A stretch of 64,000 nt of DNA. Origin: Antedon mediterranea. Its lineage: Eukaryota > Animalia > Echinodermata. The DNA lies in the NCBI RefSeq assembly GCF_964355755.1, contig NC_092677.1:23671175-23735174 (forward strand), read 5' to 3'. Both the position numbers and the translations under genes were made by a program. Of this stretch, positions 1,114 to 24,822 are shown one piece after another. Within the stretch, counting starts at the first letter, position 1; each line of letters starts with the position of its first letter. A model generated the notes under the pieces. That model was not told the origin of the DNA. It made no database searches and was given only the letters and a program-made list of their open reading frames with translations.

Positions 1114-1389
1114 TATTCGTTTTTGCTTCCATTATCTTTCAAGTTTTTTTTATACTTTAGGCCAATTGAAATAAAACAAACGTCTAAGAATAAGAACATG
1201 GCTTTTATATGAAGCCCGGTTAGCTCAGTTGGTAGAGCATCAGACTTTTAAACTGAGGGTCAAGGGTTCAAGTCCCTTAATGGGCGTATTTGTTTTTTGC
1301 TTCCATTATCTTTGAAGTCAATTTTATACTTTAGGCCAATTGAAATTTTAAAAAAACGTCTAAGAATGAGAACAAGGTATTTATATGAA

Positions 1390-1462
1390 GCCCGGTTAGC
1401 TCAGTTGGTAGAGCATCAGACTTTTAATCTGAGGGTCAAGGGTTCAAATCCCTTATTGGGCG
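1390..1462 (+). tRNA. tRNA-Lys(UUU)
   Basis: Consensus except T-loop GTTCAAAT; all stems intact. Confidence 0.9.
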
Positions 1463-1739
1463 TATATGTTTTTTGCTTCCATTATCTTTGAAGTCAATTT
1501 TATACTTTAGGCCAATAGAAATTTAAAAAAAACGTCTAAGAATGAGAACAAGGTATTTATAAGAAGCCCGGTTACCTCAGTTGGTAGAGCATCAGACTTT
1601 TAATCTGAGGGTAAAGGGTTCAAATCCTTTATTGGGCTTATTCGAGTTTTGCTTCCATTATCGTTCAAGTCAATTTTATACTTTAGGCCAATTGAAATAA
1701 AACAAACTTCTGAGAATGAGAACAAGGTATTTATATGAG

Positions 1740-1811
1740 GCTCGGTTAGCTCAGTTGGTAGCGCAAAAGACTTTTAATCTGAGGTCAAGGGTTAAAGCCC
1801 GTTATTCGGCG
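1740..1811 (+). pseudogene. Degenerate tRNA-Lys copy (recurring variant class)
   Basis: GCGCAAAAGA replaces GAGCATCAGA (breaks D and anticodon stems), 1-nt deletion in the variable region, B box GTTAAAG. Same variant at 1-56 and 3317-3388. Confidence 0.85.
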
Positions 1812-1914
1812 TATTCCTTTTTGGCTTCCATTATCGTTCAAGTCAATTTTATACCTTAGGCCAATAGAAGTTAAAAAAAAACGTCTAAGAATGAGAACAA
1901 GGTATTTATATGAA

Positions 1915-1987
1915 GCCCGGTTAGCTCAGTTGGTAGAGCATCAGACTTTTAATCTGAGGGTCAAGGGTTCAAATCCCTTATTGGGCG
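1915..1987 (+). tRNA. tRNA-Lys(UUU)
   Basis: Consensus except GTTCAAAT; stems intact. Confidence 0.9.
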
Positions 1988-2086
1988 TATTCGTTTTTGC
2001 TTCCATTATATTTCAAGTCTATTTTATACTTTAGGCCAATTGAAATAAAAAAACGTCTAAGAATGAGAACAAGATATTTATATGAA

Positions 2087-2159
2087 GCTCGGTTAGCTCA
2101 GTTGGTAGAGCATCAGACTTTTAATCTGAGGGTCAAGGGTTCAAGTCCCTTATTGGGCG
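2087..2159 (+). tRNA. tRNA-Lys(UUU), C3T variant
   Basis: Starts GCTCGG (gives a U-G wobble in the acceptor stem); otherwise consensus. Confidence 0.8.
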
Positions 2160-3316
2160 TATTTGTTTTTTGCTTCCATTATCTTTCAAGTCAATTTTAT
2201 ACTTTAGGCCAATTGAAATTTAAAAAAAATGTCTAAGAATGAGAACAAGGCAGTTCTATGAAGCCCGGTTAGCTCAGTTGGTAGAGCATCAGGCTTTTAA
2301 ACCGAGGGTCAAGGGTTCAAGTCCCTTATTGGGCGTATTTGTTTGTTGCTTCCATTATCTTTGAAGTTAATTTTATACTTTAGGCCAATAGAAATTTTTA
2401 AGAAAAAGTCAAAGAATGAGAACAAGTTGTTTATATGAAGCCCGGTTAGCTCAGTTGGTAGAGCATCAGACTTTTAATCTGAGGGTCAAGGGTTCAAGTC
2501 CCTTATTGGGTGTATTGGTTTTTTGCTTCCATTATCTTTCAAGTCAATTATACTTTAGGCCAATTGAAATTTAAAAAAAATGTCTAAGAATGAGAACAAG
2601 GTATTTATATGAAGCCCGGTTAGCACAGTTGGTAGAGCATCAGACTTTTAATCTGAGGGTCAAGGGTTCAAGTCCCTTATTCGGTGTATTGGTTTTTTGC
2701 TTCCATTATCTTTCAAGTCAATTTTACACTTTAGGCCAATTGAAATTTAAAAAAAATTTCGAAGAATAAGAACAAGGTAGTTATATGAAGCCCGGTTAGC
2801 TCAGTTCGTAGAACATCAGACTTTTAAACTGAGGGTCAAGGGTTCAAGTCCCTTAATGGGCGTATATGTTCTTTGCTTCCATTATCTTTGAAGTCAATTT
2901 TATACTTTAGGCCAATAGAAATTAAAAAAAAAACGTCTAAGAATGAGAACAAGGTATTTATATGAAGCCCGGTTAGCTCAGTTGGTAGAGCATCAGACTT
3001 TTAATCTGAGGGTCAAGGGTTCAAGTCCCTTATTGGGAGTATTTGTTTTTTGCTTCCATTATCTTTCAAGTCAATTTTATACTTTAGGCCAATTGAAATT
3101 TAAAAAAAACGTCTAAGAATGAGAACAAGGTGTTTATATGAAGCCCGGTTAGCTCAGTTGGTAGAGCATCAGACTTTTAATCTGAGGGTCAAGTGTTCAA
3201 ATCCCTTATTGGGCTTATTCGAGTTTTGCTTCCATTATCGTTCAAGTCAATTTTATACTTTAGGCCAATTGAAATAAAACAAACTTCTAAGAATGAGAAC
3301 AAGGTATTTATATGAA

Positions 3317-3388
3317 GCTCGGTTAGCTCAGTTGGTAGCGCAAAAGACTTCTAATCTGAGGTCAAGGGTTAAAGCCCGTTATTGGGCG
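3317..3388 (+). pseudogene. Degenerate tRNA-Lys copy with loop CT-TCT-AA
   Basis: Same broken-stem and B-box variant as 1740-1811, plus a TTT to TCT anticodon change. Confidence 0.85.
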
Positions 3389-3493
3389 TATTCCTTTTTC
3401 GCTTCCATTATCGTTCAAGTCAATTTTATACTTTAGGCCAATTGAAATTTAAAAAAAAAACGTCTAAGAATGAGAACATGGTAGTTATATGAA

Positions 3494-3566
3494 GCCCGGT
3501 TAGCTCAGTTGGTAGAGCATCAGACTTTTAATCTGAGGGTCAAGGGTTCAAGTCCCTTATTGGGCG
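3494..3566 (+). tRNA. tRNA-Lys(UUU), array consensus copy
   Basis: Identical to 335-407. Confidence 0.95.
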
Positions 3567-3667
3567 TATATGTTTTTTGCTTCCATTATCTTTGAAGTCA
3601 ATTTTATACTTCAGGCCAATTGAAATAAAACAAACGTCTAAGAATGAGAACAAGTTATTTACATGAA

Positions 3668-3740
3668 GCCCGGTTAGCTCAGTTGGTAGAGCATCAGACT
3701 CTTAATCTGAGGGTCAAGGGTTCAAGTCCCTTATTGGACG
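3668..3740 (+). tRNA. tRNA-Lys body with CUU anticodon (isoacceptor switch); acceptor-stem mismatch
   Basis: Loop reads CT-CTT-AA; 3' end TTGGACG gives a C2-A71 mismatch. Confidence 0.6.
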
Positions 3741-3842
3741 TATTTGTTTTTTGCTTCCATTATCTTTCAAGTCAATGTTATACTTTAGGCCAATTGAAAT
3801 AAAAAACAACTTCTAAGAATGAGAACAAGGAATTTTTATGAA

Positions 3843-3915
3843 GCCCGGTTAGCTCAGTTGGTAGAGCATCAGACTTTTAATCTGAGGGTCAAGGGTTCAA
3901 GTCCCTTATTGGGCT
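3843..3915 (+). tRNA. tRNA-Lys(UUU), last copy of the array, discriminator T
   Basis: Consensus except final GGGCT. Confidence 0.75.
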
Positions 3916-5709
3916 TATTCGAGTTTTGCTTCCATTATCGTTCAAGTCAATTTTATACTTTAGGCCAATTGAAATAAAACAAACTTCTATGAATGAGAAC
4001 AAGGTACAAGTCAATTGTATACTTTCTTTAATTCATCGTTATTATTTTAATTGGCATTGGCCACGCGTAGTAAAAATAATGATAACAAACTTATTTTGCA
4101 ATTAGTAGCATTTTATTCTTTGTGGTAATAATTACGATACAAAACTATAATAACAATTAAAAAAGAAGAAATAACCCTCTGTCTAATTGGTGTCTTTGAT
4201 TATTAGTATTCCAATGTTGACTATGTTGACTATCGGAAACTAATCAACATAGACAAATGAAGAGAAACATGATTTTAAAGCTTATTTCTGTGAGTGTGAC
4301 CAATATCAGGAATTGTAGGAATAATTATGAAAAATAATGATTCTGATTATGATTTACATTTTATCGGATCATAACTGGCGGTAAAAAACACATACACCGA
4401 TATCTAATATCTAAACATACTTACGACAACAGTCAAGGCTAAATACTTCAATTCATTTCCATAGTTTGTAATTGTAATTAAAGTTTTGCATGATTTTAAT
4501 CATAGTCCTGTTTGAGGTAACACATTGAAGGCATAATCGTTTTAATAGAAAATAGAACGTTTGATTTTTTACAGCTAAAAGTGTTTTACGACTTTTCAAA
4601 TATTACTAACAAATATGAATATTTGAAGAAAACAGCACAAATATATATACGGTAAATCGTTTTTTCTTTTTGCGTAGCGCCACTAACGGGTGTTCCGTCT
4701 CTTATCTGTTTAGGTCTGATACCGTTACGTCATTTATGCACTGCATGATGGTTAATTTAAAAACACATTAAGAATTCGGTCTGTCCATACGTCTAATAAA
4801 AAGCACGATCATGCCAGACTCATGCAAGCGATAAACAGTCGGACTTTCTAGTCCCTACATAAACATTCAGGAAAGTAGACAATTTTGGCTCTGTAGATAT
4901 TTGTGCTGTGTTCTGAATGTTTCCGCGAATACGTTGTATGTAGTTGTAATTGCATTTTTGGCGGCGATTGCCTTCCATAGTCATGTGTTACATGGTAGAG
5001 CTATTTATACCTCAGTGGTTACATGAGTAATTAATTAAGAGAATGAAGTACAATGCGACATAATAAATACTGAGAAAGATTCGTTTAGTACCCCGGGTTC
5101 ATTGCTGATACGGGGACCAGTGTACCTTATTCTATTGGAGCAAACCAGATTTGTCAAGTAGGCCTATGAATTAATTGAGATGATTGTCATATTTAGTTAG
5201 ACGATTATTGACCGACATCATAGTCTTGTTATGAACCTAACTCTCTATACTAATACCCATAGTTACCGTATCTTTTCATACATACTGCGGCCAAAATGCG
5301 TATTTTACATGATTTGTGATCATATGTGGCAGCTCAATTAACCAATACAGAAAACATTTTCGGTAAATTGTAAACAATGGTGTAGGCCTATGCCTAAGGT
5401 GAAAAAGAAGCTGGCGTTGGAATATAAATGCAACAGAACAATAATTGTGTACAAATACACTGTATCAATATTGCTAACGTCCAAAGTAGCCTAAACCAAT
5501 CATCCTTAACCTTTTCTATGGAATGTGTTCCGTTATAAAATACTGAGATTACTACCGGAATGGTCATAAAAAATAGGAAAATACATCTAGTGAAAAACAA
5601 TTGATATTACATCTACATTATGAAAACTCTTAAAAAAGTAACTCCATCAATTTACTCTGTAAAGACTTTGGTTTGTTTTGCCCTTTCCTGAGTAGCTTTT
5701 CTGAGGTTT

Positions 5710-6021
5710 TTACTGAGGTATACTAACCACCGTCGACGATTCTTGTTTTTCTTCAGAGGTAGATTTTGCTTGCGGAATAAGCTTAGTACTTTGAGCTTGG
5801 ACATCGTCTTGTGCTTCAGACGGTTCTCCTATATCGTGACTTGTACTCGCTTCATCAAATAAAGGCCGACGACGGCGAGTTTCTGAGTTGCTATTGTCGT
5901 CGCCAGAATCGGACGAAACGCTAGATTCGGCTTGTAACCAAATGTGACTTTGGCCTCCAATCATATGGCGGAATTGTTGTATTACACGATTCCCGACGGA
6001 GTTGTACTTTTCAGTTATTGC
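5710..6021 (-). CDS. SAM-SAM-aspartic protease gene, exon 5 (last): protease C-terminal part plus acidic Ser-rich tail
   Basis: Acceptor ttttcag|GCA, phase 0. AITEKYNSVGNRVIQQF.. (SVG occupies the position of the retropepsin ILG motif), then SSVSSDSGDD..RRRRP..; stop TAA at 5712-5710. Confidence 0.8.
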   Translation of the reverse strand, partial: AITEKYNSVGNRVIQQFRHMIGGQSHIWLQAESSVSSDSGDDNSNSETRRRRPLFDEASTSHDIGEPSEAQDDVQAQSTKLIPQAKSTSEEKQESSTVVSIPQ

Positions 6022-6647
6022 CTGAAAATAAAAAAACAGTTGCATAACCATTTTATTTAATAACTCTTAAAATGGCATTTTACAACAAGGAAATAATTGA
6101 CATTTATTTAATTAATTCACAGTTTTTGTTTGTGTTTATAAATATCGAGTTTTAAACAGGCCTATGACGTATCTTTGCCATTTCATTGTTTAAATATTTG
6201 GTGTTGTTGTGTCACATTGTGTCAAACAACTTGGGAGATGTTATACAAAACAAATAATAAATGTTTTATATGTAAGCATATTCGTGCTATGGTACAATTA
6301 ATTTCATTCGGTGAAATAAACCCCTTTCACCTCATGGAATTATTTGTACCATTGCACTCATAGAAATCCTTATTTGTATAATATTGCATGCGCAAGTATT
6401 ATACGTATGAAACGCCATATGTGCCAACATATTTATCTTTTTTACTAATAATACTAATTCGAAACCCAGTCTGGAACCTAGACTAGCACAATGTAAATGA
6501 GTTGACCAGTCATCAGGCTGCAGCAGTTGGGATGATCCATCGCGTCGTAATTGGTCAAATTACTCGCGGTGCGCTTCTATATTGTGTTTTTGTTTTGTGG
6601 GAAAATGTTGCATGTATAGGTTCTGGTAGGCCTAAACAAATTCTTAC

Positions 6648-6820
6648 CTCGACTTCAATTTCTGTGTCCTGACCAAACACAAGAAATGCCTTGTATAAAT
6701 CTTTATCTACAGTGGTATGGACACCTCGACTTTTGATGGGTGCTATATAGTCTAAGTGTAAGCGTGCAAACAACTCTGGTTTCAAGGTAACCACATCGCT
6801 GCCACTGTCTACCATAAACT
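6648..6820 (-). CDS. SAM-SAM-aspartic protease gene, exon 4: catalytic DSGS motif
   Basis: Acceptor ttttag|AG, donor GAG|gtaag, phase 1 to 0. (E)FMVDSGSDVVTLKPELFARLHLDY..SRGV..LYKAFLVFG..IEVE fits the clan AA hydrophobic-D-[ST]-G-[AS] motif. Confidence 0.85.
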
Positions 6821-6844
6821 CTAAAATAAGAGAACATATTATTT

Positions 6845-6950
6845 TTAAGATGTATTTTCTCCCAAAACATAAAAAATGAAGATTAATAAAATCATATTTT
6901 GAATAGTCCATTTTGTAGTTTTAATAAAGTTAATCACTTCCAAAGGAAAA
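6845..6950 (+). mobile_element. Truncated copy of the AGATGTATTGTCC MITE family in intron 3 of the protease gene
   Basis: Matches the 5' part of 49365-49709 (AAAATGAAGATTAAT..TTTGTAGTTTTAATAAAGTTAATCACTTCCA). Confidence 0.75.
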
Positions 6951-6990
6951 AAAAACGAAAAAAAAAAAAACAAACAAAAAAACAAATTAC

Positions 6991-7152
6991 CTAAGTCTTC
7001 AAATTTCGGATCCCCTGGGTGTCGTGATTTTAAAGTTGCTCGAACACACAGGAAGTCATGAGGGGAGTCCTTTAGTTCATTCGGTCTTCCCCAGTATCCA
7101 ATTGTAATTACTTTTTCATAGTCCGTTTTATGTTTTTTTCGCAAATTACTAA
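6991..7152 (-). CDS. SAM-SAM-aspartic protease gene, exon 3
   Basis: Acceptor tctcttttag|TT, donor TAG|gtaat, 162 nt, phase 1-1. (V)SNLRKKHKTDYEKVITIGYWGRPNELKDSPHDFLCVRATLKSRHPGDPKFEDL. Confidence 0.8.
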
Positions 7153-10100
7153 CTAAAAGAGAAAACAAAACAAAACGTTCCATGAAAAATTTAGTAATAT
7201 TATCCCCAATACCCGTGCTGAAGCGACAGGTAGATCTCTCAGAAACGCAAACAAAATATCCCAAATTAAATGTAGAACAGAAAGATTTAAGAAATCCACA
7301 CTCCCATTCCTGATTAACAATGACCTTATAGTGCAATAATATATATATATGAAATTCTTAATTTTGATAGGCCTACGGATAATTAATAATTTTACTCGCA
7401 GTTTTTAAATTTGTAATTGTATATTCTTTATTTTTTTTTTTTATGAATTTATGTGTATATATATATTTTTATATTAGATGGTTGTGTAATTTTGCTCGTT
7501 TTTGATATATATCTTTGTAAGTTTGTAATTGTATATTCTTTATTTTTTTTTAATGCATTTTGTATATATATATATATATTTTTATATTGAATGTTTATGT
7601 TACTGGACGCAATTCAGTTTTGTACTGCCATGTCTTTGTTTTTAATAAACCAGAATAAATAAATAAATAAATAAACGTTTATCTTAAATCTAGTAAACAG
7701 CAACATCTTTCTAATTAATGAATTATTGAATTATTAATTCATTATTTTATAATTTTATTTTGCCAAGGAAAGATTTTAAAAGGAACAAACAATAATGATG
7801 TTCCCCAACGGTTGTATTTTATTCTTTATAACTCATTAAACAATTCAACAAGTTGTAGATATTATATCAAAAAGAAGCCCATCTCGAAAAGAAGCCCACT
7901 TTGAAAAGTAGCCCACCCAAGAGCACTAAAAAAAAAGGGCTTCTTTCAAACTAGGAACAAGGCCATATACATGACTGTCCCAGTCGCGTGTTTGAATTAA
8001 GCTTGGTTGTCACTAGCGACGCAACGTAACGCAATCTACGCAACGAACGTAAGAAAATGCCCTTCCAAACATTTTTTTTTCTTGTGTGGGTTCGTCCCAC
8101 TTTTATTATAGTTCTCTGTTATAAATATAATAATATATATATATGCACATTTATATATTTCTCTTATTTATAAGGTACATTGCTAAAAAATACATATCTT
8201 TTAAACAGTATATACATAGGCTAAGATTATCTGTGTAAAATCTAGTTTGTAATACAGTACCAGAAAATTCATATTTAATAAATATCGATTAAGCCTTTAT
8301 TTCCAGTGTCAAAGACTGAGTAGGTCTATTATTTAAACAAAATGAACGAATTTATTTTATCAGGTTTAAATAATATCATCGAGACAAGCTTTATATATAT
8401 TGTTGTCAATACAAGAAGATATGTTTATGCTGTTTACCTAATATGGTGACGACGTCACGCTGGTAACTCAAGCCACAACTTGGCAAATCATGTACACTAT
8501 ATCATATTTATTCTATTCATGAAAAATCGAAGAGCGCCATGAAGACTGAAATTATACAGCAGACTACGGTAAATGATGTAACGCCCGATGTAACGACAGC
8601 CTACTTAGAAAATGAGCAAAGCTAGGTTGTAAACAATGAATGACTCATAATATTACTTTAATGCATTGCTACATGAGTCACATTTTGCTGTGAATATTAG
8701 CAATAAATTTTGAAACTGTCACAATATCGCACAGCTGATCGTCACTCCAGTGACAATTGTAAGTTCGTTATGAGTTCAGATTCATAATGCCGCGTTTTAT
8801 AACAAAATTAACGACGGTAATCTAGTAGCGCCCGCATCGGTTAGATGAATCCAAAACTTTTTCGAGCGTTGCTCACATTGGCACAGTTAGAACAACATGA
8901 CACGTTAACAGTTAGAACAAGAGCTAATCCAGGGCTAGCTGATCACCAAGAATAATTCTGGGGCGGAAAATAATCGTAGGACCGAAAGAAATAAATGAAT
9001 GACCAAACTTTTTTCTCAATATATGCTCCATCTCATCGCCTTTGTCCCTCTCTTGAAACTTCGAACATTTACCCATTTTGAATTCTTTTATAATTTATTA
9101 AAAAATCTACTTAAAATCCAGGAGACGATGCGCCTTTGATCATTTTTTTAAATTGGCGCAATAATATATAAAAGGTTTGATTATTATGATCTTTTCACGT
9201 CGGTTACATACCAATCTGTAAACGACATTAATGGCTATTGAGTAAGATTCCCATACATACACAAGACTTACTTATTTAAATTAATACTTTGAATAAATTG
9301 AATTTATTTTAAACCTGATGATTATTTAACTAAGTGATATCCCTTTTCCGTGTTTTATTGTTTTGTATCGTGGTCCAATTTCACAAACGCGGTCGATCAC
9401 ATTTCATATAATTACTTATGAGTCAGAAAGAAACGCAATTTAGTTTACAGGTGGTAACCAGGAGATATATTACGCATGCGTAGAGTATGAACACAGAGCA
9501 CGCATACAATAACCAGACGAAAATGAACTACATTGTGCGGTATACGCGCCAAGTATTGTATTATCAGTATAGCTAATTCTCATATATCTCGTTAATATTG
9601 GGTTGTGAAAAAAGATTTGACCTCGAAAAAATTAAAATATTCGTAAGGAGAAAACAAAATGAAATGGAATTGCACTTTTGTTTATTAAACAGCGTGCATA
9701 GTTGGTTGACCTACCTGCTTCGTATTAGTATATTCAGAAATAAACTACTTATGATGGATAATACTTAAAGATCTACTGTTGAAAATAAATAAAATCAGAC
9801 TTTGAATAGGCCTATGCCTTATTGTATTATATTCACTTCTGTTAAAAAATAAATAATGATTTCAGGATTAATAATAGTCAGTAATTGTTTGTAACCACTG
9901 TACTGTGGAGTAGCTTTGCATCAGGGTGTTGAGTAATTGGTCAGGCACCCGGAAATGACATGCGTATTCTCAATTTACAATTACGTCAGAGTAGGGCAAA
10001 ACATCTGACCAATAATGGTTTCAATTTAAAAAAACAAAATTAAACGAGTAGGCTAAATGAAACAAAAAATGTTTCATCTTATCTTATTTGAAATGCTTAG

Positions 10101-10703
10101 TTATTTTTTAATTGATGTACAAAATATTACATTACGTTTTGGCGCGGCCATACAAACAGCTCAGGTGGTACATTCTAGTCATTGGAAGTTTCTATCAGCA
10201 GGCCTTAGAATGACTTATACTTATACTATACTTGGTTTATACGTATTATTTATCCTCAAACCCCACTTGGACATGCGCAACTGGATTAAATCGTGTGTTG
10301 AATGAGTTTGAAAGGACAAGGACATTATAAACAATTAATAAGATAGTTTATTTTGAGAAATTTGAAATTATAAACTATAAATTATTAATGAGTAATTGGA
10401 ATATTGTAATAAAGGCTGTCCAGATAGCGCACTGTAGATAGTTTAGGCCGCACAGTGTCAGTTTAGGCCGCACAGTGTCCAGTAAAAGCATCGATGGCTA
10501 TAAATCGTGCCCACTTAGGCATGACCAGAGACCCCCGGTCACAGAATGTCCAAGAAGTAGGGCAGAGTGGTGTTGGCGCACATTGGCAATATCAGGCCTG
10601 AACTCTTTCCCTGTACATTGTGGGTGCATGCATGGAAAACGAATTTGAAGGAGAGGGATTTAGGGGTTGGGGCTCACCGGACTACTCTCTTTTAAGAGAT
10701 AAA

Positions 10704-11305
10704 AGCCTGGTTCCCACTAGGCTGCAATGCAAAGATGAAGTAGATGTAACGGAGAACACTGGGATACAATGCAAGAATGACGCAAAGTGCCGTAAGAACA
10801 AACCGTACAGTACGATAACGTTGCGTGTCAGACGTGAGAACCGACGACGTAACGTTGGTTTACACTGTGATGCAACGCAAGAATGCCGCAAAGTGCCGTA
10901 AGAACAAATCGTACAATAACCTTGCGTGTCAGACGTGAGAACCGACGACGTAACGTTAGTTTACACTGGGATGTAACGCAAGAATGACGCAAAGTGCTGT
11001 AGGCCTAAGAACAAACCGTACAGTAACCTTGGGTGTCACACGTGAGAACCGACAACGTAGAGGTTGGTTCCAAGGATGAAACGTAACAACGATGAATCGC
11101 TAAAGTGTGGTTCCCACTTGAACGCAACGCAATGTAACGCAGCGACGTATCGACGCAAAGTGTATTGCGTAATCACAAGTGGGAACCGACGACGCAATAG
11201 TACTGCAAACATCGTAGGTTTGATTTCAAGCAGGCGGGGCAAAAACAATGATTGGAAGGCATTTTCTTACGTTGCGTAGATTGCGTCGCTAGTGGGAACC
11301 AAGCT
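10704..11305. mobile_element. MITE (PIF/Harbinger-like) with AGCYTGGTTCCCACTAG TIRs and three internal ~92-bp tandem units
   Basis: AGCCTGGTTCCCACTAG ... CTAGTGGGAACCAAGCT|TTA; internal unit GCAAGAATGACGCAAAGTGCCGTAAGAACAAACCGTACA..CGTGAGAACCGACGACGTAACGTT. Relatives at ~8000-8070 and 20356-20489. Confidence 0.75.
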
Positions 11306-11404
11306 TTACCTTTGGTGGTCAATTCACTTGCTTAGCGCGCCTCGTACTTTTGCGTCCCGTCAGTGGGAAGCAAGCTATAGGGCCTAACAAACACACATTC
11401 TTAC

Positions 11405-11602
11405 CTGCTTCTCGCAAGCGTTTACGGTGACTTGGTAAATGTATTTCTAGATCGTGCAAAGTATTCTCATTCACTTCTAAATCGCTAGCTGATCTTAATG
11501 TGTCTATATCAGAATTCACAAAGTTCGTAAAGTAATAATCTAGACCATTTCTTCGCAGCCATGAAAAAACTTCAAAATATTCTGACGGTTGATATACTTG
11601 CG
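11405..11602 (-). CDS. SAM-SAM-aspartic protease gene, exon 2: second SAM domain
   Basis: Acceptor tatcttttcag|CG, donor CAG|gtaag, 198 nt, phase 1-1. VFSWLRRNGLDYYFTNFVNSDIDTL..LHDLEIHLPSHRKRLREA fits the SAM pattern V..WL..GL..Y...F....ID....L..L.I...GHR.+L. Confidence 0.85.
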
Positions 11603-12227
11603 CTGAAAAGATAAATAGATTACTTATTAATTGACTGACTGCACGAGGTAATAATATGTGTTTTTGTTAAATACCGTATCATTGATATATTTGGTTTCAC
11701 TTCACCTACAGAGTGGATATAGGTGCTTCTAGAATGTTTTTATTCTGCAGGCCTAGCAAAATGTTTAGAAGGGTTGGATTAGACGGTTGTTACTATTTTA
11801 AGTCATCTAGGCGTAGGCCTATGAAATAAACTTAATTGACTGGAATTGGTTGTTTTCCTTAACCTTTCATGTGACTTATGAATTCATATTCATGTGAAAT
11901 AAGAAGACCTGCGATGTAACATAAATGACTGCGGTTAAAAATAATGGGTCACTGTGATGATTGAGGCCCAACAACTTTACTGTGCATGCGATGCTGTAAT
12001 GTATTCTTTTTTAGTCCCCATGTTTATTTGTTCGTTTATTCATTCAATTAAAAAAAATCATAATAATAATTACTGCACAAAAATAACAAGATTACAAAAA
12101 TGATATGTTTACAACAGAGTTGTACGAAGTATTTATCTTGATACCAACACTTAATTGACTATCTGGAATAGGTTGATTTCCCCTGCATTAATAAACATTA
12201 GTTAAAAGCAAATAATAACCTGGATTA

Positions 12228-12524
12228 AGCTCTGTCAACACATATCAAACATAATGTGACAAAAAAATGTGATGTGCCCATGGACATGATGATGTCATAT
12301 CACTACCATATTCAAGCATATCACAACCATATTTGGGCATATCACACTTTTTTTCAAACTAGTTTGATAGTGTAGAGAGCTTTAAGCTATATCTACACTA
12401 TCAAACTAGTTTGACAAACAAAGTGTAATGTGCCCAAATATGGTAGTGATATGACATCATTATGTCCATATATGGAAACATCACATTTTTTTGTCACATA
12501 AAGTTTGATAGTGTAGACAGAGCT
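12228..12524. mobile_element. Two abutting inverted copies of an AGCTCTGTCTACAC-TIR MITE
   Basis: Copy 1 at 12228-12381 and copy 2 at 12385-12524, separated by TTA. Other copies at ~20099-20170, 41624-42186 and 53898-54372. Confidence 0.8.
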
Positions 12525-15500
12525 TTAGGCATGTTATGCAAATTGTCCATAACATAGACTGAGATGCGCCTACTCTAGGAAATCCATGGTTTAAAAACAA
12601 TTTAATGCTAGTGAATTACATATTTAATTACATACGAAATAAATCCGTAATGAGTAAATTAAATGCAACCGATCACCGCGTTAAAGCAATTGCTAATTAC
12701 AAATATAACATTAGGCATGCCATGTGAACGAGTCATAACAATGTGATCGCGTCATAGACAGTTGATGGTGACGCAATTAAAGTGTCAAATCACACACATT
12801 GAACTCATATGTAACGCATTTAAACTGACAGCAAACGCATTGTCAGTGAATCAGATTGATGTAATACGTTCTGGATTCACTGAAAACGCGTTTGTTAAGA
12901 TTTATTTATTTATTTGAAACTTGTTTTACATGGATGACATTTTCATTAAAATAATTACAAATGGCCCATGATGATGATAGATAGCTTTGATGTATCATAT
13001 CCAAAGAGTGTAATACAACACGCAATAAAATAAACCAATAGAATATTAGTCATTTCAAGACATTATCCGAAAAATGTATTTTTATACATTTGTAATAACT
13101 GGTTAAACATTCAAAATATGATTCACAACGAGGTACTAAACGTCTTGTCATTTTATCGATTGTCGAAGGTATAGACATAATCATCTCAATTCCATGACCA
13201 CGTGTCTATAACTCGAGGCAGGTTATCGCACTGATAATCCGTTGATAATAAAGTAATATAAATAAAGACATTTGCACGGAGGCCTCAAGGACACAATTCA
13301 ATAAAGTTTAAACTAACAATGTAGTAGACCTAATTAAATTTCAGTTCTGTAAATATTATCTTTAAATTGAGAAAAGATTCACTTTCAAATCAAAGAAAGA
13401 GAGATTTGACACAATGCAGAAGGACCAACAAAAACCGACTCACAAAGCGCCCGATCAGGCTTAGTTTTAATTACACCCGTGTATACTCGAACAACCAAAT
13501 GTTTTTTTTTTCTCTTTTGTGGGTTTCCCACTTTTATTTCATCACCAGCATTGTTTCATTCATTGTGATTTTTAAAAATTTATTTTACATTTATTCACCA
13601 AAGTTATAGTGATTGGCCCATGAATCCAGTTCAGAATCCCCGAATAAATAGTTCCAGGCGTTTTAATACCATGTCGTGGGCCCGTCGGGCAAGCATTCTA
13701 TTTCTGTATATGGGCCTGTAATAAATTGTTTTTGACTGAAAAAAGGCGCGATTCCACAAGCAACAGAATATAGAAAATGTTGAACATTTTACACGCTACA
13801 AAATATGAAGGAATTAATAGGCTTTTGTAGTCACATCTATGTCACATGTGTTTAAAGAGAATAGCAGGTCACAACGAAAATTCAGACACTGATTAATTAA
13901 TAATAATATATATAATATATATGTAGGCCTACACAAATTAGAGGTCTAAATGCTAGGTAGGCATTAATTTGCATTTATCGATTACTGTATACCCCTAACA
14001 AACTTCGAAGTATTATGGAACAAATGGCTTGCCCCACACACCTTTATTTAAGTGTTAGTACCTTATAAAAAGCATTGATTGTATTTCAAGTTAAAGTATG
14101 TGTTTAGTAATTCCCCTTTCTTCTGCAAACATTAACAAATATTTTAAATTTACACTTGATACTGGTATATAATAAACATTTATCTTCTAATTTAACGATT
14201 TATGTTACCAATGATTGATTGAGATAAGTATAAAGTGATGTTAATTTTTCCAAAAATGTAATTTTAACCCTTTTAAATATCTAAACAATTTTCCTTGTTT
14301 TTTTTTATTGTTTTCTCTTATATATTTAAATTTGTTTGTGTCTTTTGTGAGATTCACTCACTTTTATTTCATTCTTTACAATTGTTACAATAATCTATAT
14401 CAATTTTGTTTCAGTAGAAAACTATCTCTGCAGCTTAACGTGTTTTGTTTTTCTTTTTTTACATATATACATATATACAAATTTAGAGCATTTAAAAAAT
14501 AGACAGAAGTTATATATAAATATACATCACATAATATAGGTTCACAATTGCCATTAGAACATCAACAACAAAAAAATACTGTAACTCATATACCACCAGT
14601 AAATAAAACTAGTAACTCTTATATATTTGCTAGCTGAATTTTAGTATACTAGATGGTACGCTCGCTTCGCTCGCGTACCATCTAGGTCGTGCCCACAGAT
14701 GGTTCTCGAATAGACAGTAATTTCAGCGTAACAAAACTGGCGATTTCAAATGTACCGCAGGACTATAATACATTGTCGTTTACAGAAACGAATAAATAGA
14801 CACGATGATTTATGTAGTTAACTAAAATTAGCACCCTTGGAATTACTTCCGAAAGAGAAACTTATCACAAAATGAGTCCAAATTTTTGATTTGGACTCAT
14901 TTAAAGAAACCCAATTTGTGTTTTGTATGTAACATTAGGGTTGAGGGATGGGAAAGCGGATATGTACAAAGAGGAACAATTTTTAAATATAATCTTTATC
15001 CACTCAGTAACGAACTATTTTTTTCATGTAGGCCTATAAATAATATACCTCTAAATACAGTAAAACATTTGCGATTTAATACTTTGTTAAAACTGTCACT
15101 GTCATAATCGATTGAAATATTAAAGTACATGTCACGATACACCACTACGACGTTTATATTTTTGGTAATTATTAATTAATACAAACGTTGAGAAGGAACT
15201 GTTAGTATAAAGTTTATTTGTATATAATAATGTGTTTATATATTTAACAGTAGATCCTATCCACAATCTAAGTAATAAAGTTTATTTGTATATACTTTTA
15301 TATTACCAGTGGGAAAGCCACTTCGCGTTTTGACCGTTAAATCGTGTAAAATCGACTTACTTCCGCATTGACGATTTTGAAGCGCCACCTATCGTTGAAA
15401 ACTGAAACCACGATTTTTCGTCGCCTAGCAAATAAGTGCTGTTTTATTTTAAGCTCTCATGAATATTTAAGAACCGCCCAACATTACCTATTATGGTAAA

Positions 15501-15869
15501 AGCATTTCCTAATAAGTATAATTGAATAACCAATCGGTTTCTTTCAAAGAAACCGAAGCTAATACAATACATTCGGCGACTGAAGTCGGGACTCGTGAAA
15601 TTTATAAATGTGGTACGATTTGACTACTGTGTTGTTGTCCATTTTCTGAATAGTCGGAGGTGCATCCCAACAAATTAAAACAATTATAATCAATTGTTTT
15701 ATCAAGAATAATATTAGTTTAATCGAGTATGATATATTTCTATCCTGTTCAAAATTTGTTGGTGTATTCTCAGGCCTCGAAAGGTAGGTACATTTTCTAG
15801 CTGTGAGCGTGGTTTCGGCAACGCGAGACACGTGTGTCAGTATAGGCGATAGCGAGACGTGTGTTGTAC

Positions 15870-15902
15870 CATGGATTAAAGAATAGAATTCTTTAATCCA
15901 TG
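15870..15902. mobile_element. 33-bp palindromic mini-element with 7-bp TSD
   Basis: GTTGTAC|CATGGATTAAAGAAT-AGA-ATTCTTTAATCCATG|GTTGTAC. Confidence 0.7.
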
Positions 15903-18263
15903 GTTGTACTGTGTTGATGCTGATCCGATAGTCGTTAAGTTGTACTGATTACGAGTATCATTGGTCCTGGCCGGCCTAGCCTGGTGATCTGATCCCCCCC
16001 AAAAAATACTTTTTTTCAATCAGTATTAATATATTATTTGATTTATTAGGCTCAATAGATGCCTAGCTAGGCTACTAGTAGGCCTAGGCCTAGATTATAA
16101 ATAATAATAGTAAATACTGTAATTTAATTAATAAAATACAGCTTCCATTTGCCTTACTTTTATGTCATCATATAATATATTATAATTATATATACAACCA
16201 GACATTAAAATTTTTTAAAATAATATTTATTATTTTTTCTGACACTTTCAGGAATCGTTGATGATGCAGAGTTCTTTTTCTTTGTGACTTCAAACTGAGA
16301 GTGAAGTGGATAAAAAGATGACACTGTCATACCCAAACTATAATTTAATTATTTAAAACAAAATGTTGAATTACAAAAATGTATGTTGCAGAGGATTTAG
16401 ATGAATATTACAATACAAATATTTATGTTGAATGCAAACCTACTACACTATACTCTGTAAATTATGTTATTGTCATGTGGTAGACCTTAAAAATTGAATA
16501 TTTATTGTATGTTAGGGCTATTTTATATTTTATTATTATTAATACTGAATTAGTTTAATATTTATACTACAATGTATTAATTTATATTATAGTATACAGT
16601 ACTACTACTACTAGTTTGTACATGTTTTTACCCAAAAAAAATGAATAAATAATTTGTTATTCAATCTAATTGCTTGTTTGTTCATCAATAGCAAAACAAT
16701 TGTAAGCAAGTATATAACAGTTCTTGTTAGCCGCTTATTTCAGGTCATATTATTAGTATTAGCTAGGCCCGACGCGCCCGATCACAACGTCACTAAGTGA
16801 CTTTCCGCCCCTGGAACCATCGCTCGCTAATAGGGCTAGGCCTCGGACTCGTATAAAAGCTATTATAATAGTTATGATAAATATTCCTCAACTAAAATGT
16901 ATACTGTGATAAATAAACAAGTAATAATATACGTTGTATTGGAATGTATTTATTTATATGAATTCTTATATGCGGACAATTATAAACATCGCGTATATCG
17001 TTCGCTATAAATAAATTCATAAACACGATGACGATGAGTTTACAAAATGGCGGTTTCGCTAGTTTTCGATGGAACAAATAGTGGTACCTTTAGTTTGAAT
17101 AGTCGGAGCTGCATCCCAACCACCGAATTTTGTATCTTAATATCGTATTCTGTAGATTATTAATTTTTCTAACAGGGATTTTAAATTCAGGACTGTTCAA
17201 TTTTTCTAAACATTTTATTTTAATGATTTTCTAGGGTACAATTTCGGAAAAAAGACATTGGTTGATTTTGCCGTTAAATTACAGATTATCGTTTTGTTCA
17301 AATACATTTAATTTTACATGAGAATATATTAAAACCATTTATGAATTTATTTCACTAACAATATTTTTCCGATAATCAGCTAAATTTACAAATATTGTGT
17401 TTTTCCAACACCCTAAAATTGAGCAATTTTCAACTAAATTAGAAAAGTAGGGCGCCCTCTCCGAGTCGAAATTTGACACGATTTGTCGACTGGCTGTCCC
17501 ACTGTTACATCTAACAGTACGAACATTCACAGTAAGAAATGTTCGATTCAAATGAGGAACAAAAATAGTTAATAAATATTTACAGTATTGTCAAAGTATT
17601 GCAAGTTTATTCTCAAAGGGCCCATATATTTACCTACCGTATGTGTTAAACCAAGGGCTCATAAATTTACCTACAGTACTTGTGTTAAACCAAACTCTGG
17701 CAGACTGAGAGATTGGGATGTTCCATTCATCGCAAATCAATAGATTTGTATAATCGTATATTAAATCTATCAAAATAGTATTTTTTAAAGAAAATCGGCC
17801 TGTCTTCAACATTATGATGGTGTACTCTAGCTGTTCAACCGGTTTTCAGCTATTAAAAACAATTATCGTAGGAGGAGATAGGAAAATGCGAAGCCTCCTC
17901 GCATTTTTGTGGCGGGTATTTTTCAAGATGGACATCCATTAGACAGTGTATACCACGGTCGGAAAACACCCCTATTTGGGGCAAATCGTTGAACCTAAAT
18001 TCGTTTTAATCGTCAATAACTAATTATCTAACTTAATTTAATTAGTAAATAGGGTTACATCAGGTGGTTAAAATCAGTACCGAAAGTACGAACCAACTCT
18101 ACATACCATCGAGTCAAAATTCTAGAAGTAAGGCGCGATTTATCGAATTTTGCCCTTACGTAAATTTATATATAGATCCTTTTGTGAGAGATAATTATCC
18201 TGCCTCATTGTACTAATTGTCATGCCTACATTTTGTCAATAATAATAATAATAATAATGATAT

Positions 18264-18452
18264 TATAAGGTTTATCGCAAATAGCGTACGCGATGCATGG
18301 TGGGAAGGATTTGGAAGCAGACGTCACGACGCGTACATACGTAATTTGTTGTTTGTACGTCGTACACGTGACGTCTGCTTCCAAACACATCGCATCATGT
18401 ATTGTGCAATGACGTTCCTTGTGAAATCAACCTATTTGCGATAAATGACTTA
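18264..18452. mobile_element. Foldback MITE
   Basis: TTTATCGCAAATAG ... CTATTTGCGATAAA termini; inner IR TTTGGAAGCAGACGTCACG / CGTGACGTCTGCTTCCAAA. Confidence 0.7.
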
Positions 18453-20355
18453 TTATTGACAATTAGTTAGTATACTGTAAACAATACCTATTTCACCATA
18501 TTATGGTGGATTAAATAATGATGTTTGATTCTTTGCAAGCAAACAACAAATTTTCTTAAATATGTACATACATTTAAAAATAGATACAAAATAAATGGAA
18601 AAATGCAAATGCTTGGTGAGGCGTTTTGTTAAATGCGGAACAGCTTCAACAGTTTAAAGAAAATCTTTATCTAAATAGATTCAAAGGCATTTCAGTCTAG
18701 AATTGCGCAGAAGAAAAAATTCCTGAGTCATTTAAAACAATCCATGCATCGAGAGTTACACAAATTATATATAAATATATAAATGTACGAATAAAATAAA
18801 ACACGATATACTATTAATTATCCAATATTTGTAAAATTCAACGTGGAGATAAAATCATCGTAAATGTTAGTCGTAATGTAATGTGAACTAATATTAATAA
18901 CCATGAGGAAAGAGTGTGGGTACGTACATGAACAACTCTTGAGAACCTCAGCCTTTTTACATGGTATTTTTTTTTCGCGCGAATCAATCGTGGACTAGGG
19001 AAAGCCTTTTCATTAGCGAATACATTCGCTGGAATCGAACATTCTTGAATTTTGATTGGTTGCGCATTTTTTTACGTCACACAAAGTATTACATGTCACA
19101 TGCGCAATAGTCAACAGTTTCGATTCACGCGAATAAATTCGTTTATGTCTCCATGGAAAACCGGCTTAATGCGCATGCGTAACTTCATATAAAAAGTACG
19201 CAAACCAATCAGATGTCGAGAACATTTGATACGTAGTTAGAATCCCTCTTTCAGGACACATCTATTAAGGGGACACCCTTATTAAGGGGACACCCTTATT
19301 AAGGGACACCGTGAAACGAACAGCAGATGGTTTTACACAGTGCTGCCAGTTTTTGTTTAGTGGAACCCCTAAATAGGGACACTTTATTGGGTCCCTAACG
19401 TGTCACCTTAGGTTTTGCATCAAAGGTTACAACGCGTGGCATCGATTACCGTCATAATCAATGTGATCTCACTTCCTTATATGGTTATAAATATCATGAT
19501 TCTGTAACAATTATATAATTTCATTTTCGTCGAAACAGGATGCATGACCAGAGTATCTAATACGATTTCACGACTCAGTATGTTTTATTATTGGTGTATT
19601 CAATATATAATTTGTATCCACTCTCCACCCCCCCACCCCCCTTTTTTTTTTCCACAAACAATTGAATTGAAGTGTACATACACATTAATCTATAGAAACG
19701 TGTGTATTCCTCAACGACCAATATATCAATGAGTAAGCACAGAGGTTTAATTAACATAGAAACATCCTAACGATTTTAATAACGACGAAGGCAAAGTTCG
19801 ATGACTGTAAGGTCATTGAACTGAAAAATAGACAATGCTTGGAAAATACAGAATATGTATGATTCAAAATTAATCAGAATGAAATAAAAATTCTAATGAA
19901 ACAAAACAACAATTGTTTATGAGTCGAAGGGAAATTCAGTAAACTGTGACGTCATGATTGCCGTTCGTCATTTCTCAGTCTTGGCTCTATATATACAAAA
20001 TAAGTTTAGGCCTTACCTAATAATGTTTATTTTAAAAATATTTTATATGTTTTTTGAATTAAAGATACTGAGATACAACATTGTCGATAATGGTCTAAAG
20101 CTCTGTCTACACTACCGGGTATCACACTAGTTTGACAACAAATGTGCTCAAATATGGTAGTGATACATTTATCATTTTTGTTATCCGCCTTATTTATTTC
20201 ATTTTTAGTTATAAAAAAAAAACTCGTTGATACTAATTTGAATTGTGTTGCTAAATTTGTTTGGAATGATAAATACATAAAATAAAATTATTCATCCATT
20301 CTATTATACGACGTGAATATTCGAAGCCCCGGATGATGCACTCTATTTCGCCGTA

Positions 20356-20489
20356 AGCCTGGTTCCCACTAGGACGCAATCGAGTTGACCAATCACACGC
20401 GACTGTTCGTATAATCCATCGCTTGAGATTGGTCAAATTACTTTGCGTTGCGCTATTCCTTGCGTTGCGTCCTAGTGGGAACCAAGCCT
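20356..20489. mobile_element. MITE of the TGGTTCCCACTAG family
   Basis: AGCCTGGTTCCCACTAGGACGCAA ... TTGCGTCCTAGTGGGAACCAAGCCT. Confidence 0.75.
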
Positions 20490-23400
20490 TAGCACCAACT
20501 TGAGCTGCGCTGCCCTAAACTACGGAATTGTTTTAAAACCTATTTTCCAAACATTTCCACCAAACCTATCTTGTTCATACTAAGCACCACAGTAAAACAA
20601 TCTGCACAACCAACAACACTTCCCAAGTGTCGCAGCCAAATATTGCTTTTCCCACCAATTATTGTTACTCGCTAAGCGCCATGAAAACTTATATTATACA
20701 AAAAAGCAGTATTGCTTATGACATTGTAATACACTGTATAAAATTAATATTATTATTTCCTGGAATTTAATTTTAGAATGACCTATTATCATAATGGGCT
20801 GTGTTGAAACGCATTGTATCGACTACTGTATCATGCATATTGCATATTCCCCGTGCTCATAGGCTATGTTATCCGCTAAAGTGTTTCCTCGCTAGCGTCT
20901 CGGTCGGAAGAATATTGGTTATGACATTATGTAACATAGAATTAATAATGTAAATTTCCCGGAATTTTATTTTAGAACAACATTATTAATATGTCATGGT
21001 TGGTACTACTAACCATTAACCATTTTTGGAGACCTAATGGTCTAGCCGCAGTCGAAAAGCGCCGTGGCCTATCATGCGCATTCCCCGCGAGTTCCGCAGT
21101 TCAAAGCACCACAGTTTTTCACGCTAAGGCGCCTCGGAAACCACGACGTAGTTGATACCAAACAAGATTCATTGGTTATGACATTATGTAATATATAATA
21201 TAATTAATCACTATAAATTTCCTGGAACTTAACTTTAGAACAACCAATTTAATATCATTCAATCTTGCTTTGTTATCCATGCTGTGAATGCCCTATCTTA
21301 GCCTATACAGTTCCATTTCTTTATTAACAGCCTAGCTATTGTACAGATAACTTGGACGAATTCTATATGTAACACGACTAAGTAAATAAATACCACAAAA
21401 ATAAAATTGCAAATTTTATTGCATACTAAATTTGGAACTAGTGGAAATTCCGTAATTAACAAAAATCAATATCATGGAACCGGTCGGTGCGGTATCGCTT
21501 TTGATAGAACATTAGCCTATAGACACGAGTCAGAAAGCAAGTTGAGTGTTCTATTTGCTAGAATACATAATATATTAATAACAATAGGCCTATAGGGCTA
21601 ATAATAAATATCTCTTCACAAGCACCCCTATTAGTGTTAGATAGCCCTGGTTTGGAAAGCCATGGTACTTCGTTTTCTTTACTTTTTAGGCCTATCATTT
21701 GATTTCGCTTTCTGCTTTTTATTAATTTGTATCTACATTGATTCAGTCACTCCATATCACTTCCCAGTAATTTGTCTTTGAATAGAGGCCTAATCCAATA
21801 TAATAATACAATAAAAAAGCCCAATTGATGATATGTTATAATTTTATTTAAAAATTATATTTTTCTAGGCAAAAATTGATTTGAATAGGCCTATCGACGA
21901 CACATGATAATATCGTAGGCCTATAACATAACATATTACGTAGGCCTACATAATGAATTAAAGACCTAATGATGATACCTAATACAGGCCTAACAGCATA
22001 CATACTCTTGACCGGTTATTTTAAGCCGGCCACCTTTACATTTATACAGTATTATGCTTAGTAATTACAACCATTACAGATATTTTATTGAAGTAAACCG
22101 ATGATCGAATATGATATTTTATCGAAACTTATGGACTCTTTTCTAAACATTATTGTGTAGGCGTAAAAATGTGCCATTTCCGTTTCATAACTATAAATCT
22201 CATGATCGCAATTATGCAATTATTTTATTAATTAATTAATTTAAAACAAAAATATATCAGAATCATTACAGATATTTTATTGAAGTAAACCGATGATCGA
22301 AACTTATGGACTCTTTTCTAAACATATTGTGTTTAGACGTAAAAATGTGCCATTTATTTTTTCATAACTATTATTATTAAATCTCATGATCGCAATTATT
22401 TTATTCATTTATTTAAAACATTTAGGATAAAAATATATTGGGTGTTAGGCCTATATGTAGGCTTATAGAAAATTTTTTAAATATGGTTCTGTGTTTCAAT
22501 ACTGTTAGGTTTAAACAAATACATCAAACACCTAAAAAATTGTAAAAATAAAAAAAAAAATGTTTAGGCCTAAATGAAAACAAAATAAAGCGTCTTAGTT
22601 TAAAGTAAACCTTGAAAATGATTGGAAACAAAAAATGTATAGGCATTAAATTAGCCAATAAAAAAAGGTGGCAGATGGGAGTGTCACACGGGTGAGGTGG
22701 TGTGGTGGGGACAGGGTTCAAATCAAATTGTACATGGACAATTGTTTTCCTTGACGACAGAAATAAAGTAAAACAAACAAAACATTACATGGATAATTTA
22801 AACTATTAACATTATAGTGCTTAACTACACTATAGTGTCCTATAGTATTTTGTTTGATTTATAGGCCTATGGGATCTGTGTGGGTCAAACTGCTCTTTTA
22901 CCGAATATTGTAATTATTATATTGTACCGAAAGATGTATTTCAACACTTTAAAAACGGATAATTATGAAGGCTCAAAACTAATATAATACGCAAAGCGAA
23001 GTATAATTATTATCAGCAAATATTGCTGACAGTCAATTATAATAATATAGGCCTAAATATAATTTATATAAAAGGTGTCTATTTTCAAAGCATCAATCAA
23101 TCGGAAGAAACTCGTGATTAGTGTGCACTATTTCATAATACGGTTCAGTTTAATGAATCATTGGCATCATATTATTGTTCTTAGGCCTGTGCCCGCAAAA
23201 AACGGACTGGTTGATGAATCACACAGTCGGGCCTGCAATAATACAGCCAACCACAGCATCTTCATTCAATACTTACTCAAACATTAATATTCATAGGGAT
23301 TTAATAGGGCTGAAAAATCCCACGTCCCTATTTATTATTTAAAAATAGAAAACGGACTTGGGTGTATAATTTTAAGCAATCGCACAATTGCCTACCGGTA

Positions 23401-24085
23401 TACTCTAAGCCAGGGGCCTAGATGCAGGCAAGTGTTTCGATGGTTTGGTCTTAAATAAATTGTTGATAAGTGTAGGCTATTGAACAATCGTTGTAGGTCT
23501 AGAGTTTTTAACACGTTTTTTCAAATACCACAATATAACATAAGTCTAAAATTATAGCTAACATAACTCGTCTGTGTAACTGATCTGTCGTGCGCACGTT
23601 CTTACTTTTTGTTATACGTTCTTACTTATTTAAACTAAATCATAAAGAGCTATAGGCTAGGCTATTGCCTGTCTACTTTTTAATAATAGGCCTATATTCA
23701 TATGATTTTTATATTCATTTTATAATATAATTGGTCTAACTAGAGGGGTTTACGCCTATCGTCGCCCACTCTCTGACAATAATGATTCATGCCATTTAAG
23801 TAACCTGCCCCATTTTTATAGGTCTAGGCTACATTATTTTTGTTCCATAACACAAGCCTTAGACTGCTAGGCCTAGCCTAGGCCCCTCATATAAAATCAA
23901 GCCAAAACATTTTATTAAAAATAATTGAGCACTTAAAAATTATTGGTACATTTAATACGGACATTGAAATAATTAATCAATAATTAAACTAGGCCTAATC
24001 ATAAAATACGTAAGTAAGGTTAGCCTATAATATAATTTAAAGACTTAGCCTAGGATTATAATAAAAAACAAATGACACTTCCTAC

Positions 24086-24260
24086 CTGCTTCTAAAATAA
24101 GTCTCCGATGTTCTTTGTTAAAAATTTTCATTTGATTTAAATCATCCTCATCCAAATTAGGAAAATCACTTTCAATGTCATATCCTTTAATTTTAAATAT
24201 CTCTTCGTACTGCATCAGTCCAATAGGATGTAGAAAGTTAGAGATGCCTTTAGAGTTCAT
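24086..24260 (-). CDS. SAM-SAM-aspartic protease gene, exon 1: first SAM domain
   Basis: ATG at 24260, donor CAG|gtagg, phase 1. ISNFLHPIGLMQYEEIFKIKGYD..FPNLDEDDLNQMKIFNKEHRRLILEA is a typical SAM domain. Confidence 0.85.
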
Positions 24261-24822
24261 TATCACGCTGTACAGTTAACTAAGTCCGAACGAGCTGTAC
24301 AAAAATATTCTTTTCAGTATCCAACCTCAACCGATTACAGATAATACGTCAGCACGGTGAGTGTCTATGAATGTATTATGTTCGAGAGAGAATCGAAAAA
24401 TACAATAATTCATTTCCCCTTAATTTATTGTGTTTTATAAACTCTATTAAATTTCTTGGGCATGTATTTACTTGAATGGTCCCAACGGCGCTTATTGGTG
24501 GAGTAAAGTAAGAAAGGCCTGATTCTTACTATGACGTCATCAAGAAGGCTTCTCCCAAAACCGGCTTGTCTGGACGTGCCCAAAGGAAGGTCGCGAACGA
24601 CGAATGCCTCTCTCTTTAATTAGCGTTAATATGACGTCATAATATTTTCAACGTATGACCTTTGACATGACATGTGTTTACAAACTTCACAATGTGAGCA
24701 TGCAGCAATTCAAGTCGCAGCGCCAGGCCGCACGGCGGCCACCCGGTTGTGTGGGCAGTGCACACACACCACAACCACGGTCCACGTCGCGCGACTGACT
24801 CGCTTTGTGTGTATGTTGAAAG
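24261..24822. promoter_or_regulatory. Probable bidirectional promoter between the SAM-protease gene and GMDS
   Basis: Divergent ATGs; locally GC/CpG-rich; TGACGTCA at 24532-24539 and 24632-24639; TGACCTtTGACAT (DR1-like) at 24656-24668; AAGATGGC (YY1-like) overlapping the GMDS ATG. Confidence 0.75.

Follow-up and report, generated by a model that had tools for sequence, protein, structure and literature searches.

The acid-protease core is described as a D-[ST]-G loop together with a hydrophobic-hydrophobic-Gly loop that completes the psi-loop (PMC11313796), and retropepsins are described as working as homodimers (PMC11402058). A SAM filament of tankyrase brings adjacent catalytic domains into activating contacts (PMC9712121), and SAM assembly in SARM1 places the adjacent catalytic domain for contacts of this kind (PMC10252437). 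Here, we analyze a 64,000-nucleotide stretch of contig NC_092677.1 from the crinoid Antedon mediterranea (hereafter the window), which carries on its minus strand, between positions 5710 and 24260, a gene for a conserved animal protein in which two SAM domains are followed by a single-lobe domain of predicted retropepsin fold, its Asp-Ser-Gly motif intact, and then by a tail that is variable. The parts and an analogous mechanism are known, and the SAM-SAM-retropepsin combination and its family appear to be uncharacterized. A literature search combining SAM with retropepsin, aspartic, or aspartyl protease, with subscription journals and supplements mostly outside its coverage, returned nothing on this family, which agrees with the initial annotation of this DNA, whose author knew of no characterized protein of this architecture.

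With Ddi1/Ddi2, ASPRV1, and Rickettsia APRc (5C9B/5C9F), the predicted protein shares the single-lobe clan AA fold, the D-[ST]-G motif, and extra N- and C-terminal strands. It differs from cellular retropepsins in its 14 to 20% identity to them, its two N-terminal SAM domains, and its own invariant residues G143, W145, H255, H262, and W264. Pfam returned SAM and weak aspartyl-protease models on the scanned members and, unlike for Ddi1/Ddi2, no ubiquitin-like family; residues 1 to 133 model as two SAM domains rather than a Ddi-type domain, and beside the protease there was no sign of a ubiquitin-like, UBA, gag-like, or membrane part. On the SAM side, ANKS1A/B (Odin, AIDA-1) and CASKIN1/2 are the closest matches. 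In contrast to these, the Antedon protein is without ankyrin, PTB, and SH3 domains by Pfam, has a shorter linker, and has an enzyme attached, which makes the name "ANKS1A-like" given to some homologs in databases misleading. Tankyrase and SARM1 belong to other enzyme classes and match weakly in SAM sequence, and their assembly serves here as an analogy only. Unlike SARM1/TIR-1, the protein has no ARM or TIR domain detectable by Pfam, and its layout is not ARM-SAM-SAM-TIR.

Gene structure and transcript evidence

The five-exon gene is confirmed as real. All five exons were reproduced as they had first been annotated, with four GT..AG introns, cumulative phases of 1,1,1,0, and a joined coding sequence of 1020 nt that encodes 339 aa with a single terminal stop. 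Exon 1 (24086..24260; placed by its GT-AG join and Pfam) encodes residues 1 to 59 and thereby most of SAM1, including its acidic mid-loop surface. Exon 2 (11405..11602; residues 59 to 125) contributes the 4-residue linker and most of SAM2 with the basic end-helix and the invariant R120, and exon 3 (6991..7152; residues 125 to 179) the end of SAM2 helix 5, a basic patch, and the first protease strands with the invariant G143 and W145. The catalytic D-S-G loop and the flap region lie in exon 4 (6648..6820; residues 179 to 236), where the codon of the predicted catalytic Asp183 is GAC at 6807..6809, just where the initial annotation had put it. Exon 5 (5710..6021) encodes residues 237 to 339 and the stop, comprising Gly246 of the G-loop, the C-terminal strands (invariant F253, H255, H262, and W264), and the disordered tail. 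The spliced product is identical over 339/339 residues to NCBI entry P0001, an uncharacterized protein of this species, and an independent gene model therefore agrees with the exon set.

Splicing was seen in one X1 contig of 1042 nt (depth 28.3, not read as an expression level). That X1 is RNA is the tool's guess; it represents one study, and no run is on record as RNA. Contig positions 1 to 367 map to 24453-24086 and stop at the exon 1 donor, and the 5' untranslated part of exon 1 extends at least over 24261..24453, with in-frame stops upstream of the ATG. Positions 564 to 724, 725 to 901, and 902 to 1042 map to exons 3, 4, and 5 with consecutive contig coordinates. The presence of exon 2 is inferred by arithmetic, the 196-nt gap equaling its 198 nt minus a 2-nt AG overlap. 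At the exon 4/5 joint the contig jumps 626 nt with ends CT..AC; runs X2 and X3 contain no such joint, and their reads continue through the intron borders. A second X1 contig of 1387 nt spans 5000-5909 with a 30-nt overlap with the spliced contig and marks a probable 3' untranslated region at 5000..5709, which may reach about position 4500. The contigs carry no strand information. The proposal that SAM and protease exons belong to one transcript is thus borne out by a single contig, probably RNA, that includes exon 2 by calculation.

SAM1 occupies residues ~2 to 61, SAM2 66 to 133, and the protease domain 138 to 266, and the disordered tail starts at about 270. Each SAM domain falls nearly within one exon and the protease domain is spread over three. 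Pfam recognized one SAM domain at E 4e-11 in exon 1 and the other at E 6e-6 in exon 2, and Asp_protease_2 in exon 4 below its cut-off (E 2e-4, 22.4 versus 24.3 bits). Column conservation is highest in the protease domain (0.59), compared with 0.47 and 0.53 in the SAM domains and 0.20 in the tail. The tail had been annotated as acidic. Residues 270 to 339 are indeed mildly so (14 D/E and 7 K/R), but they are S/T-rich (20 residues), predicted to be disordered, and not conserved, and a conserved acidic tail was rejected. Differences within the species were synonymous in 3/3 cases in the core and nonsynonymous in 4/6 in the tail, numbers too few for a test. The protein is likely intracellular and soluble, as judged from the lack of any hydrophobic stretch of transmembrane level in 7/7 members examined.

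The protease domain and its family

Two AlphaFold models were considered, one of the window protein (10 sequences, predicted local distance difference test [pLDDT] 74.7, predicted template modeling score [pTM] 0.43) and one of a Nematostella homolog (32 sequences, pLDDT 92.2, pTM 0.60). The first matched APRc with Z 10.5 (root mean square deviation [rmsd] 2.9 Å, 109 aligned residues), followed by foamy virus, HTLV, EIAV, and FIV proteases (Z 9.6 to 9.8). Ddi1 was not among the best 50 structure matches listed for this model, which excludes nothing. The second likewise matched APRc (Z 11.1, 3.0 Å, 115 aligned), with EIAV (Z 10.3), XMRV (9.9), and Toxoplasma Ddi1 (9.3; rmsd 3.1 Å, 102 aligned) among further matches, all at identities of at most 20%. 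A search of the protease profile against sequences of solved structures gave nothing significant, the best hit being a foamy-virus protease at E 0.17. The models thus support the retropepsin fold originally proposed and suggest a single-lobe clan AA domain that is near no solved member.

The window protein has one catalytic motif per chain, D183-S184-G185. Of the 104 matches that span the column of the catalytic Asp, 103 retain this residue and 94 have D-[ST]-G, a false match to an insect allergen repeat (P0042) having been removed beforehand; two rows, P0134 and P0148, look like off-target alignments to tails and include the sole one without Asp. The conservation of Asp183 that the initial annotation's reading required is thus upheld. 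In the 28 full-length members, D183, S186, and G246 of the G-loop are invariant, as are G143, W145, F253, H255, I257, H262, and W264 of the terminal strands, which by analogy with known retropepsins would form the dimer sheet. On the same analogy, two chains are inferred to contribute one Asp183 each. The protein is quite probably an active protease.

Searching 1.84 billion representatives with the protease-domain profile gave 148 matches at E <=0.001. SAM domains are carried by 29 of 38 matches scanned, with no other partner domain seen; the remaining nine are fragments, one false match, one prokaryote-type protein, and divergent forms. Only three of the 29 SAM-bearing members pass the Pfam protease cut-off, and because most score under it, database names such as "SAM domain-containing" or "ANKS1A-like" cite only the SAM domains. 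Named members come from about 45 species in eight animal phyla, sponge to amphioxus. They include a sponge (Oscarella), five cnidarians, gastropods, bivalves, cephalopods, a chiton, Lingula, and two nemerteans, and among deuterostomes all five echinoderm classes, three hemichordates, and amphioxus. Thirty of the 148 matches were identified by species, the rest being mostly short unnamed fragments, and among these named members there was provisionally no vertebrate, tunicate, arthropod, nematode, annelid, or flatworm.

A quick tree (50 rows, midpoint root, long sponge branch) recovered echinoderms (96), hemichordates (95), and molluscs (97), placed all seven full-length unidentified rows within the molluscs, and largely tracks animal phyla. 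In 98 of 120 partial matches, no inner end lies more than 4 positions away from the window's two protease introns, and counted by ends this holds for 152 of 176 against about 27 expected, a signal that comes partly from gene callers starting at a Met just after the first protease intron. This pattern indicates that the protease exon borders are common to the family. Taken together, the sequence comparisons indicate that the family is an old, vertically inherited host gene. It looks conserved, with mostly one gene per named species. In this respect it is unlike the expanded immune families of invertebrates; for the role in innate immunity or cell death suggested in the initial annotation, we found no evidence.

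Several variants were noted in passing. Cnidarians hold two lineages of the family (P0034 and P0043 versus P0049, P0067, and P0076), and Actinia and Actinostola carry D-S-A. Four divergent relatives of the protease domain (P0091, P0178, P0179, and P0106) show D-T-L where the family has D-[ST]-G. The three of them that are full length also carry Pro instead of the G-loop Gly, lack a recognizable SAM domain, and are possibly a dead, SAM-less paralog. Database models P0016, P0032, P0173, P0035, and P0051 are short by exactly one exon (SAM2 or the first protease strands), and could be isoforms or gene-model errors.

SAM surfaces and control of the protease domain

In sequence, the SAM domains match ANKS1B, Caskin-1/2, and SHIP2/Odin-Eph chimeras (E 2e-13 to 5e-11), with weak matches to tankyrase (E 0.004) and SARM1 (E 0.0045 or worse), and they resemble the ANKS1/Caskin/SHIP2-EphA2 type rather than the SARM1 type. 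The analogy to the SARM1 tandem drawn in the initial annotation was not supported, and a SARM1-like ring was rejected on the weak match and on the modeled tandem, which lies 11.5 Å off that of SARM1. The two domains carry complementary charges. The SAM1 mid-loop (ML) is net negative in 28/28 members (mean -5.6) and the SAM2 end-helix (EH) net positive in 28/28 (mean +3.4), while the SAM1 end-helix is neutral (mean +0.1) and the SAM2 mid-loop acidic (mean -4.6). The helix-5 Gly is found in SAM2 of 22/28 members and in SAM1 of 2/28; R120 is invariant and H117 nearly so. The same pattern of charge and Gly is described for the complex of the EphA2 end-helix with the SHIP2 mid-loop (PMC10935306).

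As for the use of such surfaces, the SAM pair of ANKS1B and CASKIN1 is described as closed within one chain (PMC10252437), whereas in CASKIN2 SAM1 pairs with SAM2 of another chain (PMC4994250). The linker between SAM1 and SAM2 is 6 residues shorter in the Lingula member than in Caskin-1, and 4 to 6 shorter again in cnidarian-type members; 4 residues separate the SAM helices in the first model and 1 in the Nematostella model. The SAM tandem of the first model could not be superposed on known tandems, those of ANKS1/Caskin included (rmsd 9.7 to 11.7 Å, modest inter-domain confidence), and the Nematostella model gave a single-SAM match or 11.6 Å. Since the linker is short and the models depart from known tandems, the SAM2 end-helix would be available for binding in trans, with a second copy or a different SAM protein as its partner.

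The protein is likely an intracellular aspartic protease working as a homodimer. Its chains are predicted to be joined head to tail, the mid-loop of each being bound by the SAM2 end-helix of a different chain. Such assembly would cluster the protease domains so that they dimerize and proteolysis is raised, much as in tankyrase SAM filaments. We regard it as falling a little short of an even chance that the SAM domains link chains and cluster the protease domains into active dimers in this way. Such assembly-driven activation, already suggested in the initial annotation, is plausible and gains a structural argument from complementary SAM surfaces that are unpaired within one modeled chain. The full proposal, an animal-old proximity-activated protease in which head-to-tail SAM polymers force retropepsin halves into active dimers, is put forward more tentatively still.

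Several observations weigh against this proposal. At the end-helix Gly position of SAM2, the window protein has Ser, and 6/28 members have Ser or Ala, and Ser in place of Gly may weaken EH-ML binding. The inter-domain geometry comes from models with a pTM of 0.43 and 0.60, built on shallow alignments. On the catalytic side, the G-loop reads small (mostly Ser)-hydrophobic-Gly instead of the textbook hydrophobic-hydrophobic-Gly, with Gly246 in 28/28 members, D-S-A occurs at the catalytic loop in four matches, and D-T-L variants exist. Moreover, stable dimers form unaided in many cellular retropepsins, Ddi1 among them, and gating may therefore be unnecessary. Finally, binding to other SAM proteins is just as compatible with the charged SAM surfaces.

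In a possible but less favored explanation, the protease dimerizes constitutively, and the SAM domains are targeting adaptors through which substrates or scaffolds that bear SAM domains reach the active site, SAM1 by binding Eph-type end-helices through its mid-loop and SAM2 by binding SHIP2/Odin/SAMD5-type mid-loops through its end-helix. At the top of the solved-structure matches stand the engineered fusions Odin-EphA6, SHIP2-EphA2, and Caskin1-EphA6, along with single heterotypic SAM domains, and a dimer would offer four free SAM surfaces; however, no partner was identified, and with both complementary surfaces in one chain in 28/28 members from sponge to amphioxus, self-pairing is the simpler account.

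It is rather improbable that the SAM domains form an inhibitory or localization switch, in which the basic motif of SAM2 helix 5 and the patch behind it are a nuclear localization signal (NLS) masked by SAM pairing, as has been proposed for ANKS1B, and the protease acts after nuclear import or after releasing itself by cutting. An NLS in SAM2 helix 5 is described for ANKS1B (PMC10252437), one of the two best structure matches, activation through self-cleavage is described for ASPRV1 (PMC11402058), and the invariance of R120 with the near-invariance of H117 would suit such a motif. Yet the basic patch varies between -2 and +7, and cnidarian-type, sponge, and some mollusc members have a weak patch or none, the helix-5 motif is accounted for as an ordinary EH surface, and the closed ANKS1B-type pair is not seen in the models (rmsd 11.5 Å).

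Slightly less probable again is that the retropepsin domain is a noncatalytic module for dimerization or peptide binding in a SAM scaffold. The few members above the Pfam protease cut-off, the D-S-A and D-T-L variants, and the occurrence of the fold in a mitoribosomal subunit (7ane_ao, matched by both models) are in its favor. Dead protease copies usually lose the Asp, whereas here it is retained, as are the Ser/Thr, the Gly, and the Gly of the G-loop. A recent retroelement relic, or unrelated exons joined by chance, is a very improbable account of the gene despite fold matches to retroviral and foamy-virus proteases, given the spliced contig, the introns common to the family, the tree following phyla, identities of 8 to 19% to the viral proteases, and a family profile that marks exactly the five exon stretches in the window and no second copy.

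Origin, genomic surroundings, and significance

The initial annotation had read the locus as a host gene, and this reading is supported by the shared introns, the phylum-like tree, and the neighbors. A retroelement or retroviral protease gene was effectively ruled out by the two family-wide introns within the protease domain and by the absence of gag/reverse transcriptase/integrase context. The neighbors, a tRNA-Lys array and exons of a GDP-mannose dehydratase gene, likewise argue against a retroelement context. The array comprises 20 tRNA-Lys genes in tandem (160-3916; 19 TTT and 1 CTT, spaced by ~175 bp), and its end is close to the probable 3' end of the protease gene; the exons of the GDP-mannose 4,6-dehydratase gene lie at 43837-48730 on the plus strand. 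Intronic sequence of the protease gene holds, at 10756-11072 and 12280-12469, three copies of a repeat of ~101 to 107 bp and an inverted-repeat element of 46 nt. The latter is likely a high-copy repeat resembling a miniature inverted-repeat transposable element, given the very deep coverage of its region in the runs. A 135-aa open stretch at 35237-35644 on the minus strand, in which Pfam found no family, resembles the C-terminal end of a reverse-transcriptase protein of a long interspersed nuclear element.

For the protease domain, the nearest ESM Atlas clusters are prokaryotic stand-alone clan AA proteases (features 0.90 to 0.91, TM 0.71 to 0.78), in a resource restricted to large clusters and with nearness being no proof of transfer. 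Alignment with hhalign to prokaryote-type proteins gave probabilities of 96.9% for P0147 and 95.6% for the protease of contig L001. TIGR03698 was matched by 0/5 members in one scan, and 5/12 divergent members reached 13 to 25 bits against a cut-off of 57.35. A word-limited search of 185,579 prokaryotic genomes returned 33 pattern matches and no close relative, and BFVD gave distant matches alone, at 7 to 22% identity. Among viral contigs, 1/28 matches, a weak one, was a stand-alone protease beside a DUF5678 gene; on this IMG/VR contig (L001, 2619-3366), the DUF5678 gene is followed by the gene for the clan AA aspartyl protease. We consider a prokaryote-like origin of the protease domain a lead, not a result.

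Intracellular retropepsins known from animals are few, and the ones that have been studied come mostly from vertebrates or yeast. The family represents a separate lineage that has persisted from early in animal evolution; it has stayed hidden because the protease domain of most members scores under the Pfam cut-off and no homolog surfaced in standard model animals. With a core of ~260 residues that is predicted to be soluble, and with members in Nematostella, sea urchin, and amphioxus, the proposal is directly testable. If SAM assembly gates the dimer, the family would provide a second solution to the caspase logic of an assembly module plus a dimer-activated protease. In that case, sponges, cnidarians, molluscs, echinoderms, and amphioxus would possess a caspase-like switch built from a prokaryote-like aspartic protease, and its apparent loss from vertebrates, flies, and worms would account for its having been missed.

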